The notes: generated by a model not told the origin, from the sequence alone. Shown: positions 1,320 to 44,366, counted from the stretch's first letter. The stretch is DNA of 50,778 nucleotides from Microbotryum violaceum (GCA_001244265.2 LN717261.1:1055813-1106590); one strand, 5' to 3'. Numbers and translations: made by a program.

Positions 1320-1704
1320 TGTGACAGTCCACTCTCAGCTCGCAGAGGCGCCTCGGTCGGTGCGCGCACACGCGCTAGCCCGCGCTGACGCGCGCGACTG
1401 ACTCAGCGCGCCAGCGCCGGGTGGGTCCGTGCGCGTGCCCACTAGGCCGCCCCCTTGCGGTGTGGACTTAGGCGCGCGCGACTGCGTTAGCGCGCTAGAC
1501 TGCGTTAGCGCGCTAGCAACTTCACCCGCGACTGGGCCTATCCCAGCGCGGGTCCCCTTTCTATTTCTTAGCTTCCCTCTCACCACTTCTGTTCAACAAT
1601 CGACCTCTCCTGACAGTAGTGGTGATTGTCTCATAGGTATGCTGAAATAGACCACTTCTGTTCAACAATCGACCTCTCCTGACAGTAGTGGTGATTGTCT
1701 CATA
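1320..1704 (+). repeat. A2 5' LTR (TG...TA, two U5 units)
   Basis: Direct repeat of 6239-6621; ends CTCATA immediately before the PBS GGTTAT. Confidence 0.95.
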
Positions 1705-1705
1705 G
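1637..1705 (+). other. Putative 69-nt spliceosomal intron in the family A LTR
   Basis: GTATGC donor, CCTGAC branch motif, CATAG acceptor whose G is the first base of the PBS. Exactly this segment is absent from the A0 5' LTR (13163-13475). Confidence 0.7.
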
Positions 1706-1732
1706 GTTATTCGCCCATCGACCTACCGCTGG
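1705..1732 (+). promoter_or_regulatory. PBS complementary (with mismatches) to the 5' half of initiator tRNA-Met
   Basis: GGTTATTCGCCCATCGACCTACCGCTG directly after the LTR; compare the Ty5/copia half-tRNA PBS GGTTATGAGCCC. Confidence 0.85.
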
Positions 1733-1733
1733 C

Positions 1734-4700
1734 ATGGACACGTCGTCGCCCTAACGACGGGTGCCCACCCAACGATCCCCGCCGAACAGCTCGCCGCACT
1801 TACGTCGCTGCTGTCGGGTCTCACCACTGCCACATCCGCCACGTCGTCCGGCACCTCTCGCCCCGCCTTTCCCAAGCACGCACGCTTGGATGGGCCCAAG
1901 ACGTTTGCGAGCTGGACACGCCAGCTTCGCCTCTGCCTCGCGGACGACATCCGCTCATACGTCCTCGACGGGATTGTGCCCGCCGACTGGACACCTTTGC
2001 ACCGCTCTGCCCGCGATGTCGTGGCACGTGAGCTCCTAGCGAACTCGATCGACTCAGCCGACGTCTCGGCAGTCCTCGACCAAATCCCTACCGCCGACCT
2101 CACAGCGCCCAAAATGTACTCGACGCTGAAATCGCGGTATGCTCCTGACGACGCCACTCGCACGCTCGAGCTCTTCTCCCGACTGTGGAGCTTCCGGCCC
2201 ATGCCTGGCACCGTTGGCGAATTCGACGGCTGGATCATGGAGTTCAAAGCTATTGCGCAAGAAATCATCGATACGAAGACCACGATCAACGATGCTCTCG
2301 CCACACTCCTCCTCGCCATCGCTCACCCGTCCCTCGAGAGTTTCAAGGCGTCGTTCACCAATGAACAGCGCACTCAACGATCTCTCCCTGCTATCGATTC
2401 GCTCGCCGACCGCATGCGTGTTCAACTCCGGTCCACCAACGTCCCCAGCACCCAATCGGCCCTTCTTGCCTCGTCGTCGTCACGTCCTACACGTCCCAAG
2501 TGTCTCGCCTGTCGCAGCCCTTCGCACCGTGTGGCGGAGTGCCCTGTGAGAGCGACACACCCGCCGCCAGGACCCTGTCGCTCCTGCAAGCAGAATCACT
2601 GGTCTTTCGACTGCAAAAAGGCTCTCGGGAACAGCAAAAAGGCCGACACGGCGAACTCGACCGCCGACTCGCAACACCATGTCGGATGTATCGCCACTGG
2701 TCTTCTCGCTCGTCGCCGCCAGCTTCGCACCAACTCTTTCGTCGTTGACTCGGGGGCCACCTCGCACATGGTCTCGGACAAGTCGCTGTTCACGACCTAT
2801 CGCCACATCGCTCCCACAAAGATTGGAGGCATTGCAGGGGCATCAACGCCATCGGAACGGGAAACATTGCCTTCGTTGCCGCCTCGGGCCATCCGATCAC
2901 GCTCACTGGCGTGCTGCACACTCCCGGCCTGTTCGTCAATCTCCTCTCGGTCTCTCGACTTTGCGACACCGACGACGTCCGTGTTGCCTTCACGAAACAT
3001 GGCATTGATATCGACAAAGACGGCAACAACATCGCTGAAGGCACGAGGCTCGACGAGGGACTCTACTTGCTGGACGCTGATCATTCCAAATGTCAGCATC
3101 TTGCTCTCCTCTCTCGTTCACAGTCTTCCGTGCCCCTGCTGACTCTCCACCGCTGCCTCGGCCATCTCGCACCGTCGTCCATACAGAAGATGGTTGCCGC
3201 TGGTTTGCTGGAGGGTCTCGGGCCGGATATAGTGACGAAGAGGTAGAGAGGTTTGTCTGCAATGCTTGCCTTAGTGCCAAGGGCCATCGTCTTCCTTTCC
3301 CCGATTCGGATTCGCACTCATCCGAGAGACTCGGCCTGGTACACAGCGATGTGCTTTCCCTCCCGGAGCGTTCCTTGACTGGCAAACGATACCTGGTCAC
3401 GTTCCTCGACGACTACTCGCGCAAACTGTGGGCCTACGCAATCGGACATAAAAGCGAAGTCTTCAGTGTGTTCAAGACTTGGCTTGCCGAGGTCGAGCTC
3501 GAGACAGGTGCAACACTGAAGGTCCTCCGAACTGACAATGGTGGCGAGTATTGCTCGAGAGCATTCACGGAGTTCTGCAAGGTGCGAGGTACGCGTCGAC
3601 AATACTCTATCCCTCGCACGCCTCAACAAAACGGTCGGGCGGAGCGGGTCAATCGTTCCATTGTTGAAGGTATTCTTGCCCTTCTGGCGGACGCCCATCT
3701 ACCCAAGACATTCTGGGAGGAGGCTGCGGCTTACTTCGTTTACTGCAAGAACCTGGTTCAACACTCGGCTCTCGACAAGGCAACACCGAACTCGGTCTGG
3801 CAGGGCGGACGCACCACAGCCTCCGCGCTTCACCCGTTCGGCTGTGCGGCTTGGCTCACGGTCGCGCCCGAACTTCGCTCTAAACTCGACCCGAAAGCGG
3901 TTCGCGTTCTGTTCACCGGCTACGACTTGGCTTCCAAAGCCTTCCGCTTCTACGACACTACAACAAAGAAGGTCACCCTGGGCAGAAATGCCACCTTCCT
4001 CAACACTAAATTCCCCGGGTTATGTGGCGACTCCGCCGATCCAGACGATGACACGCACTTCGCCAGCGCTCCCTTTGCTGACCCTCAAACCACCGTCGAA
4101 TCATGGACCCCACTAGTAAGGTCGGCGCACATGGACGTCTCATCCCCTCTTGATGATTCTTCCATGAGCGCCGTTGACGTGGCCCCAGGGTACACTGGCG
4201 GATCCTTACTTAATTCCACAGATGCCGAATCGCCCGCGTCACCGTCGCCTGCGCCGTCCTCGTCACTGTCTCCTGAGCCGGCCTCGTCCCCTTCGGCTGC
4301 ACCATCGTTCGCGCCCTCACCGTCGTTGGCTGCATCGTCGTCACCTTCGGCCTTACCCACTGAATCTGAATACTCCGCCGATCCTCTTGACCTCATCGGA
4401 TCACAGCCCCAGGCTCCCTCGACCCAATGGACACCCCACTCCCAGACTTCAGCACGTACCGCGAACCCGCATCGGCTGAGGAGTCGCCCGACGAACTCGA
4501 CCTCATTGGACGCCACTCTCGCGACGAGTCCCCGGACGAAATCGATTTCCTCACTCGCCATCACCGCGCATTCATTGCGACTGACGACGACAACTCTGAC
4601 ACCGAGGCCATCGAACCTGTCAAATCCATTACGAGCGACCCACAGACCTGGCGAGAAGCGATGTCGGGCAACAAACGTGAGGTATGGGCCAAGGCCGCTG

Positions 4701-42656: not shown

Positions 42657-42674
42657 TGTTCGAAGTAGGGGGGG

Positions 42675-43234
42675 TGTGAGAGTTACAACTCTCTGTACTT
42701 CCTTCTCACATCATCTCCCTCTTTCTGTCTTGTCCTCTCTGTGATTTTTGGCCTGTCCTTCACCCTGCTCTATCATCACTGGGCTTGGTCTGTGCACCTG
42801 CATCAAGTGCACGGACCTAGTCACTCTCTGCCTGGCTCCCCTTGCCTCTAGGCTGGGTCCGTGCGCTTGGCACTGGGGCACGGACCTGGTTGCGCACTTG
42901 CCCCAGCCAACTGGCTCCGCGCTTTTCACTCTCCTGCTCAAGCAACTTCATTGGTCTGGTCTCCCTGGTCCGTCGATCAGAGACTCACCACCGCTTGAGC
43001 AGGTGAGCACTACACTTTCTAGTTCCTCTCTCCCTTCCATAGCCATGGTAACTTACTGTAGCACTTGAGCAGGTGTGTAATCCAAGCAACTTCATTGGTC
43101 TGGTCTCCCTGGTCCGTCGATCAGAGACTCACCACCGCTTGAGCAGGTGTGTAATCCAAGCAACTTCATTGGTCTGGTCTCCCTGGTCCGTCGATCAGAG
43201 ACTCACCACCACTTGAGCAGTTGTGTGGTTCATA
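42675..43234 (+). repeat. C2 3' LTR (560 bp, three units; GT...AG modules 43003-43072, 43073-43146, 43147-43220)
   Basis: Longer than its own 5' LTR by these three modules. Confidence 0.95.
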
Positions 43235-44020
43235 ATTCCATGCGCGACGACTTCAAGGTCTTCACCATTGATGACCGTTCTACAGTACCTGCGGGCGCGA
43301 CCATCGTATCGTCCAAATTCGTCTGGAAAACAAAACGGAACGCGCTCGGCGAGATCACTGGACACAAGGCACGGCTGGTCGCGCAAGGCAATCGCCAACG
43401 TGACGGCATCGACTTCACTGAAACCTTCGCACCGGTCGCACGCTTCTCTTCGATACGCTCCCTCCTTGCGCTGGCGGCCACCAATGGCCTCCATGTACAC
43501 CAAGCGGACATCGACAAAGCCTACCTTCACGGTGACCTCGACCACGACATCTGGATGACGGCACCGCGGGGCTTCGATCTTCCTGGCGATAAGGTGCTCC
43601 GACTGCGACGCTCACACTACGGGCTCAAATAAGCTGGCAGAATCTGGAATTGACACATCGACGCTTCGCGACCTCGGTTACACGGCGACAGGCACGATCA
43701 CTGCGTCTACTCTCGGCTCGACGATCGGCAACGCCCACACTACATCGCGCTGTACGTTGACGACCTTCTGATGATCAGCCCGGACCTCGCCGAAATTGAA
43801 TGTGTCATCTCGGGCCTTGAACAATGCTACGGTGTCAAGCGACTCGGCCCAGCGGAGTACATCCTCGGCATCCAGATTCGGCGACTCGACGATGGTTCAA
43901 TCGCACTATGACAGGAACGGTACATCATGGACGTGCTTGCTCGGTTCCACTTCGACACTACGACTCGCGGAACTACAGTCCGATGACCCCCGGCCTTTCG
44001 CTCACCGCCATCCCAGGTCA

Positions 44021-44365
44021 TGTGAGGAATTCACTCTCCGCTCGCCTCAGGACTTAGGCGCGCGGAGCGAACCGGGCGCGGACTTAGGCGCGCGGAGCGA
44101 GCCGGGCGCCCCGGCCCAGGACTTAGGCGCACAGAGCGAGGCTGGGACTTAGGCGCGCGGAGCAAGCCTGGGCCATTGGCTCAGCCCCGAGGCTCGCTGG
44201 CTGAGGACTTGGCGCGCGCGGCTCTTTTGTTGTTAGCTTCCTATTCATCACTCTTGGCTATAACTACACCGCTGACGTAGTAGAGTTGATTGAATAGGTA
44301 TGTTGAAATGGATTCATCACTCTTGGCTATAACTACACCGCTGACGTAGTAGAGTTGATCGAATA
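44021..44365 (+). repeat. Family D 5' LTR (TGTGAG...GAATA, two U5 units)
   Basis: 3' part repeated at 49086-49177; followed by a PBS. Confidence 0.9.
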
Positions 44366-44366
44366 G
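44298..44366 (+). other. Putative 69-nt intron in the family D LTR
   Basis: GTATGT donor, GCTGAC branch, AATAG acceptor completed by the G of the PBS. Same length as in family A despite a diverged interior. Confidence 0.7.

Follow-up and report, generated by a model that had tools for sequence, protein, structure and literature searches.

Candidate introns with a duplicated first exon in the long terminal repeats of Microbotryum Ty1/copia elements, and their possible rebuilding at first strand transfer

That retrocopies and retroelements are without introns is, in textbooks, put down to the reverse transcription of mature RNA. Among the elements with long terminal repeats (LTRs), Ogre, Drosophila copia and BARE have internal introns that are spliced by the host, and in human T-cell leukaemia virus type 1 (HTLV-1) and foamy viruses the major splice donor lies inside the repeat region (R). 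Penelope-like elements keep a short intron (75 bp in Penelope) in the pseudo-LTR (pLTR)/5' untranslated region through retrotransposition, by a mechanism that the accessible text of the report leaves unexplained (PMC8557442); in maize LTR retrotransposons, LTR-contained introns were found by long reads, "first evidence" according to the authors in the accessible part of their preprint (bioRxiv 10.64898/2026.05.08.723830). This work concerns four families of Ty1/copia retrotransposons (A to D) in a 50,778-nt stretch of Microbotryum violaceum DNA (GCA_001244265.2 LN717261.1:1055813-1106590; in what follows, the window), whose LTRs carry short tandem modules with the ends and the size of introns, which might be rebuilt from a duplicated first exon.

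The likeness to Penelope-like elements, as far as the accessible text on them goes, would be an intron in the 5' untranslated region of a terminal repeat that is retained by the retroelement; the difference is that theirs is another class of reverse transcriptase (RT), with a GIY-YIG endonuclease and target-primed integration, whereas the elements here belong to Ty1/copia, are primed by a tRNA and offer, in the duplicated first exon, a possible route to retention. The RT and integrase domains of the window are only RVT_2 and rve, and neither a Penelope-like RT nor a GIY-YIG domain was found there. The maize introns, in contrast, are long (mean 1303 bp) and belong to non-coding, LTR-only transcripts, and the accessible part of the preprint does not describe a duplicated first exon or a regeneration. 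As for HTLV-1 and foamy viruses, they share with the window elements a 5' splice site in the LTR, downstream of the start, but their acceptor is far downstream, and their spliced RNAs lose U5, the primer-binding site (PBS) and the packaging signals and are not genomes; here both sites would be internal to the LTR and upstream of the PBS. Finally, the introns of Ogre, copia and BARE lie between or within coding regions, and only the unspliced RNA is the template, with nothing to rebuild. In the full-text literature searched, no description was found of a duplicated first exon in an LTR intron, or of regeneration at strand transfer; supplements and most subscription journals were outside the scope of this search, and an older report is possible.

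Regarding their anatomy, the modules are units of tandem arrays placed at the PBS-proximal end of the LTR, with a period of 61-75 and 1.9-4.0 copies (Tandem Repeats Finder). An earlier reading of the window, made from the sequence only, had proposed four of them, and all were recovered with the ends it gave: 1637-1705 in family A (GTATGC..CTGAC..TAG, 69 nt); 44298-44366 in D (GTATGT..CTGAC..TAG, 69 nt); 15493-15560 in B (GTGAGC..CAG, 68 nt), together with two 72-nt modules; and 43003-43072 in C (70 nt), together with two 74-nt modules. The arrays of A and D are made of a 54-nt unit and a 15-nt spacer, GGTATG[CT]TGAAAT[AG]G, with a period of 69 nt, and the last unit adjoins the PBS; those of B and C have a 63-nt unit, a spacer of 9-12 nt (GTGTGTAA..), a period of 72-75 nt, and an LTR tail of 14-16 nt before the PBS. 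In addition, the B and C arrays hold one odd module, X, of 68-70 nt, with the ends GTGAGC..CAG. The arrays also answer to the description of a minisatellite, with head-to-tail copies in variable number (0-3 extra units per LTR), and the intron reading remains compatible with it.

The junctions between units are YAG/GT in all four families (CATAG/GTATGC, AATAG/GTATGT, GCAG/GTGAGC and GCAG/GTGTGT; the slash marks the joint). The hexamers that open the modules in the window, GTATGC, GTATGT, GTGAGC and GTGTGT, resemble the U2-type 5' splice-site consensus; the modules end with TAG or CAG and have the length of short introns, 68-75 nt. Between A and D, the spacer and the end of the unit, from CTGAC to ATAG, are conserved and the 5' half of the unit has diverged; despite this divergence, the two unit copies within each A or D LTR are 0-1 nt apart. 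For module X, the conservation between B and C is limited to the first 11 nt and the last ~26 nt, the pattern that the two ends of an intron would leave. The YAG/GT junctions, the conservation between A and D and the ends of X exceed what chance would give. The sequence-only reading had spoken of four families, and modules do occur in all four; however, A shares about 75% identity with D over the internal DNA, and B about 81% with C (self-comparison), and a quick RT tree places the A/D lineage as sister to B/C inside one clade, so that these are not four independent cases. Two further observations on the units are recorded here: a conserved RNA hairpin was considered, and the z-scores of -1.0 to -2.0 for the window units were unconvincing; on the reverse strand, the B/C units show GTAAGT or GTGAGT by eye, which was left unscored and is not used as evidence.

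The interpretation favoured here, with a probability of roughly 0.6, is that these LTRs have introns with a duplicated exon 1/R, which could be rebuilt at the first strand transfer. The modules would be short introns of the spliceosomal type in the R/U5 of the LTRs of one Ty1/copia clade: the unit would be exon 1, from the transcription start to the 5' splice site, and would act as R; the spacer would open the intron, and the second unit copy would be the 3' end of the intron, terminating in the acceptor YAG. Splicing of the 5' leader would join unit 1 to the LTR tail and the PBS in B and C, or directly to the PBS in A and D, so that the spliced RNA would still be R-U5-PBS; the predicted joints are ..CTCATAG/GTTATTCG for A, ..GAATAG/GTTATGAG for D, ..GAGCAG/GCGTGACA for B and ..GAGCAG/TTGT for C. 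In B and C, recursive removal would be possible because each acceptor CAG abuts the next GT. As for the 3' end of the RNA, it would be cut inside the last unit or just past it, and it would retain unit-spacer-unit because the cut occurs before a usable terminal exon exists. Strong-stop DNA copied from the spliced leader would then anneal to any unit copy at this 3' end; landing on the last copy would give the full LTR, and landing on an earlier one would give fewer modules or none, so that 3, 2, 1 or 0 modules are expected, which is the series seen in B and C. Inferred, in other words, are the splicing of the RNA, a transcription start at the first bases of the unit, a poly(A) site in the last unit and the reverse transcription of spliced RNA.

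Should RNA data bear it out, the mechanism would be new, as would its solution to intron erasure, in which the spliced RNA restores its own intron. It would give the element the expression benefits of an intron in intron-dependent hosts, and it would explain the LTR length polymorphism of these families; annotation would be affected as well, with regard to where R begins and ends, to variation in LTR length and to what a "solo" or short LTR means. Donor, acceptor and duplicated unit are each <100 nt, and would make a simple experimental system. A broader version, in which the LTR intron would be obligatory throughout the clade (Microbotryum and several uncultured eukaryotes), with spliced genomic RNA routinely reverse-transcribed and the intron rewritten in each cycle, is more tentative, and slightly less than even odds are given to it.

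The comparison was extended to metagenome contigs, which were scanned with the B-family integrase and RT; 80 copia loci with 26-42% protein identity were obtained, and the regions upstream of their PBS-like sites were inspected. A recurrent layout, first met in locus L001, was found in 17 of the 80 loci (19 LTRs, 7 lineages): a segment of 22-33 nt, called "a", occurs twice, with a spacing of 52-111 nt. The sequence between the two copies is not repeated, and for this reason the boundaries in the metagenome loci are fixed and not choosable. Copy 1 of "a" is followed by GT in 15 of the 19 LTRs, by GC in two and by AT in two (decayed copies), with the donor-like starts GTGAGT, GTAAGT, GTCAGT, GTTAGT, GTATAG, GTAAAG, GCAAGT and GCGAGT; the repeat, or a short piece "b" that comes after it, ends in YAG in 7 of 7 lineages. 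A TATA box is located 31-34 nt upstream of the first base of "a" in five loci. This is the usual distance from the TATA box to the start site. The simple form of the layout, in L003, L006, L035, L037 and L065, has an "a" of 22-29 nt and a core of 23-30 nt, with sums of 52, 52, 53, 53 and 54 nt, as if the sum were the constrained unit; candidate intron lengths among all the metagenome relatives are 47-61 nt or 52-54 nt. The fungal branch consensus is CTRAY; CTAAT or CTGAT was found in L006, L035, L065, L013, L054 and L077, and was absent in L001, L002, L003 and L037 of the metagenome loci checked.

Short-range repeat pairs are not rare in the 80 loci (n = 44), and all the 11 that have a donor-like hexamer are at this position of the LTR; the repeats of the coding regions are without such a hexamer, and three of them have a chance GC next, without AAGT or GAGT. 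Sixteen loci have a recognisable PBS of the layout type: ten show the layout, one (L062) has a single copy and five are without it. A single part of the quick RT tree, of 46 rows, contains every lineage that bears modules, with a Shimodaira-Hasegawa-like approximate likelihood-ratio test (SH-aLRT) value of 85, a branch that is not a firm clade. The nearest named matches of the L006-lineage protein are plant proteins, with 45-49% identity. Two related loci lacking the duplicated unit (L020:940-970 and L024:2245-2276) have CAAG/GTAAGG inside a hairpin just before the PBS, possibly a donor for which the LTR holds no acceptor.

A longer form, a - I - b - S - a - b, was encountered in three lineages (L001/L002, L013/L015 and the L054 family), where the second copy resembles a spliced first copy. 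The insert I is 47-57 nt long and runs from GT to YAG, b is a pyrimidine-rich piece of 10-20 nt that ends in AG, and in all three lineages copy 2 (a b) equals copy 1 minus I; the spacer S starts with GT in L001, L002, L013, L015, L028, L046 and L054. The two copies co-evolve. The LTRs of L001 and L002 are 82% identical, and six differences, two in a and four in the 10 nt of b, are all present in both copies, with the donor changing from GTGAGT to GTAAGT. Between L013 and L015, 10 of the 25 positions of a differ and b is unrelated, and yet within each of them copy 1 equals copy 2. The units of these two loci (L013:1791-1815 and L015:285-309) are near-perfect hairpins with compensating changes (z = -6.0 and -3.9), which may represent a 5'-terminal stem-loop in R. 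Ordinary recombination is unlikely to keep the copies in step when b is 10 nt long, with the insert on one side and a different sequence on the other; conversely, if copy 2 were re-made repeatedly from the 5' end of a spliced RNA, the co-evolution of this 10-nt piece would be expected, and minus-strand strong-stop DNA from the spliced leader would deliver the re-made copy. The idea of the sequence-only reading, that R/U5 is duplicated around a donor and that the module is rebuilt by strand transfer, thus gains seven distant lineages whose boundaries are fixed, whose ends are donor-like and YAG and whose length is constant, three of which have a spliced-looking, co-evolving copy 2; its argument from LTR asymmetry is weak, as explained below.

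Several observations weigh against the intron reading. In A and D, the branch-like CTGAC is 22 nt before the proposed acceptor, with two AGs in between; the B/C units have CTTAC or CTCAC where CTRAY is expected, and X has GTAAC. The third unit of the A4/A5 LTR, at 33396-33456 (61 nt), is without GTATGCTG, donor or GT..AG phase, and no TATA box was found upstream of the units in the window families. Moreover, removal of one period gives the same product in every phase, and therefore a GT..AG phase needs only AGGT somewhere in the unit: it is one of many equivalent descriptions of the array, and a deletion in the register of the units mimics splicing. Among the metagenome loci, the second spacer S of L077 starts with AT, as does the insert in two LTRs of the L054 family; in L034:3157-3227 and L073:7234-7303, an 18-nt direct repeat ending in CAG, with a spacing of 52-53 nt, is found at the apparent LTR start with no GT next. 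Single-copy LTRs exist in two layout families (L062, of the L006 family, and L036 and L047); they fit landing on copy 1 and could also come from direct-repeat deletion. Finally, four runs were compared, X17, X19 and X20 (RNA by guess) and X2 (DNA), all as Logan k-mer contigs; these contigs can not span identical units of 54-64 nt, and are thus silent on unit number and splicing. The sole LTR-related joint, 44299->44662 in X17, has a short side of 30 nt, in which one and two units are indistinguishable.

The asymmetry between the 5' and 3' LTRs, which the sequence-only reading had taken as its main argument, belongs with these points. Counted over the copies of the window, the extra modules of the 5' LTRs are one in A1, one in A2, none in A3, two in the A4/A5 LTR, three in By, and none in Bz, C1 and C2, with one in D1; those of the 3' LTRs are one in A1, three in Bx, two in By, three in Bz, one in C1, three in C2 and two in the A4/A5 LTR. 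The earlier tally of module-less LTRs was reproduced, with 4 of 8 at the 5' end (4 of 9 when the A4/A5 LTR is counted as a 5' LTR) and 0 of 7 at the 3' end, and the same is true for the lengths of the LTRs within single elements bounded by target-site duplications (TSDs): 295 and 507 bp in Bz, 342 and 417 bp in C1, 340 and 560 bp in C2. As an argument it is statistically weak, the difference being not significant (Fisher two-sided p = 0.077 with 4/8, or 0.088 with 4/9, versus 0/7); in the three discordant elements the empty LTR is always the 5' one, with p = 0.25 in a sign test. The two LTRs of Bz are identical over the 280 nt they have in common, so that the loss of modules occurred at or soon after its insertion.

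Nor is the asymmetry an outcome of the proposed mechanism. In canonical reverse transcription, R-U5 is copied a single time, into strong-stop DNA, which is the ancestor of both LTRs; a single RNA therefore yields identical LTRs whether it is spliced or not, and discordant pairs do not follow from the model. Four sources are plausible. A slip during plus-strand strong-stop synthesis would, by our own reasoning, fall on the 5' LTR in about three cases for each one on the 3' LTR (P(3 of 3) = 0.42); an early contraction of the array and a conversion by cDNA or RNA of the spliced leader are the second and the third. The last is the transfer of a short plus-strand strong-stop DNA to another minus strand of the same particle, a route put forward for asymmetric proviruses of human immunodeficiency virus (HIV) in the accessible text of PMC9278108. 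The 5'-only loss in three elements is treated as a by-product and not as proof of splicing.

The alternative that survives best, unlikely as it is, regards the arrays as plain R/U5 minisatellites that are never spliced, with a copy number that changes via template switching of the RT from one direct repeat to another, misaligned first strand transfer or slippage in replication; in this view the GT next to the unit would be left over from whatever followed the unit at the first duplication, which in A/D is the PBS start GGTTATG and in B/C the LTR tail. The arrays are tandem by Tandem Repeats Finder, in A, D and L001 the spacer start GGTATG is close to GGTTATG, with which the PBS begins, and the B/C spacer resembles the LTR tail; one unit, of 61 nt, lacks the GT, and identical unit copies are what often reshuffled arrays have. 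Asymmetric LTRs arise in HIV reverse transcription (PMC9278108, accessible text), and the plus-strand strong-stop slip considered above would bring a roughly threefold excess at the 5' LTR. The direct-repeat deletion and asymmetric LTRs described for retroviruses in the same source explain the copy-number variation and the discordant LTRs, but leave the splice-like boundaries and the conserved layout unaccounted for. The minisatellite leaves unexplained the GT or GC after the repeat and the YAG at its end in seven further lineages with a non-repeated core, the start of the repeat ~31-34 nt past the TATA box in the five loci that have one, and the fixed 52-54 nt of core plus repeat; likewise, it does not account for a copy 2 without the GT..YAG insert while the 10-nt piece beyond the insert co-evolves, or for an X that keeps only its two ends between B and C.

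A second alternative, improbable in our judgement, is that the donor-like motif binds the U1 small nuclear ribonucleoprotein (U1 snRNP) with no productive splicing, for instance to silence a nearby poly(A) site or to mark the RNA, and that the doubled R aids first strand transfer. In some retroviruses, splice donors within R regulate polyadenylation, and this counts in its favour; no part of the spacer is better conserved than the donor-like hexamers, the branch motifs of B/C are weak, and the spacers are A/T-rich in an LTR that is otherwise 60% G+C. However, U1 binding would not explain why the ends are YAG, why CTAAT occurs late in the core or why the length is a constant 52-54 nt, nor would it explain the spliced-looking copy 2, and the L013 spacer is only GTAA, too short for a poly(A) signal; a poly(A) signal in the spacer was dropped as a general explanation on account of these 4 nt. 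As for assembly collapse of the tandem repeats as the origin of the LTR length differences, the many single-base deletions of the window relative to the contigs of the four runs and the unit numbers unconfirmed by contigs speak for it, but it is very unlikely indeed, given that the difference recurs in three separate elements with clean TSDs, that partial numbers of 1, 2 and 3 modules occur, and that module-less and module-bearing LTRs of one family are present in independent metagenome contigs.

Returning to the elements that hold the candidate introns, the G+C content across the 50.8-kb window is 55-62%, and its content is nearly all nested LTR retrotransposons, as seen by self-comparison. 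The order of the Pfam domains in the A, B and C copies (Pol_BBD, gag_pre-integrs, rve, SH3_retrovirus, RVT_2) is that of Ty1/copia; the LTRs have the ends TGTGA..CACA or TGTGA..CATA, a G-run precedes each 3' LTR, and the TSDs are of 5 bp (GTTGG, CGTCT, GATAC, ATTCC and GGTGC). The PBS-like sites adjoining the 5' LTRs are GGTTATGAGCC(C) in B and D, GGTTATAAGCC in C and GGTTATTCGCCC in A; priming from the anticodon loop of the initiator tRNA is known in fungal elements (PMC10886601). Copia-like elements are the commonest type of LTR element in Microbotryum lychnidis-dioicae (PMC4469406), and the closest protein relatives of the window elements are annotated Microbotryum proteins, with ≤93% identity. 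The reading frames are disrupted in every element copy; contigs of all four runs have single C or G insertions with respect to the window (e.g., at 32481, 33612, 34301, 34520, 35133 and 37515), and since they restore these bases, the frame damage is at least partly an assembly error, apparently due to single-base deletions.

In family A, A1 (1320-6622, plus strand, TSD GTTGG) is nested in A2. Its 5' LTR (1320..1704, plus) has two units, with the module 1637-1705 (GTATGC..TAG, 69 nt) and the PBS-like GGTTATTCGCCC next, and its 3' LTR (6239..6621, plus) has two units, with the module 6554-6622. These two LTRs are only ~90% alike despite the TSD, with indels in 83-nt repeats and in an 18-nt U3 repeat, which points to U3 recombination, conversion or assembly error. 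A2 is on the minus strand, from 10268 down to 6623 and then from 1319 down to 3, interrupted by A1 with its 5-bp TSD; its 5' LTR (9885..10268, minus) has two units. The 5' LTR of A3 (13162..13475, minus) has one unit and is module-less, its 3' LTR being beyond the window. The tandem copies A4 and A5 have an LTR in common (plus strand, 33094..33456 plus the first 88 nt at 22403-22490), which has three units and is split by the insertion of Bz.

In family B, the 3' LTR Bx_3 (15214..15720, plus, 507 bp) consists of the unit, X at 15493-15560, the 72-nt modules 15561-15632 and 15633-15704, and the tail 15705-15720. By_3 (15806..16235, minus, 430 bp), a 3' LTR, has X and one 72-nt module; the 5' LTR By_5 (20698..21204, minus, 507 bp) is 100% identical to 15214-15720, has the PBS GGTTATGAGCCC and has the flank GGTGC in common with it. 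The stretch 15806-21204 was considered as a TSD-bounded B element and rejected: the LTRs at 15214-15720 (plus) and 21204-20698 (minus) are 100% identical and both flanked by GGTGC, oppositely oriented; an inversion has therefore taken place between two copies of B (15214-21204), and this stretch is one of its sides. The 85 bp between these B LTRs, at 15721-15805, are A-internal sequence and resemble 1280-1319. Bz (33093 down to 22491, minus, TSD CGTCT) carries C1 and is inserted in the A4/A5 LTR; its 3' LTR (22491..22997, minus, 507 bp) has X and two modules, and its 5' LTR (32799..33093, minus, 295 bp) is module-less.

As for family C, C1 (23032-28404, plus, TSD GATAC) lies inside Bz, with a module-less 5' LTR of 342 bp (23032..23373, plus) and a 3' LTR of 417 bp (27988..28404, plus) that has one 75-nt module and is without X. 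C2 (37817-43234, plus, TSD ATTCC) is inserted in A5; its 5' LTR (37817..38156, plus, 340 bp) is module-less, and its 3' LTR (42675..43234, plus, 560 bp) has X at 43003-43072, the modules 43073-43146 and 43147-43220, and the tail 43221-43234. In C2, one X20 contig skips 92 nt in the GAG-pre-integrase part, at 39554-39645 (GTATGC..AAG), a skip not shown by the DNA run X2; either cryptic splicing or a copy with a deletion could account for it, with a frameshift as the outcome.

Finally, D1 starts at 44021, and its 5' LTR (44021..44365, plus) has two units, with the module 44298-44366 (GTATGT..TAG, 69 nt). A D-like 3' LTR considered at 49083-49177 was rejected as a chimeric rearrangement junction: at a microhomology (GCGGAC/GCTGAC), D pol passes into the final 27 nt of an LTR unit, then the spacer and a full unit, and continues directly into gag (the equivalent of 45277), so that it looks like a template-switch product. 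The PBS region of D1 is duplicated (44366 and 44649). An insert of 1351 bp in A5 (34180-35530) has 14 A's at its end, as in a non-LTR retroposon; no Pfam match was obtained for the one open reading frame tested (33890-34747), and coverage in runs X19 and X20 is highest over this insert. Its first ~96 nt recur, inverted, at 44553-44648, between the LTR and the PBS of D1.

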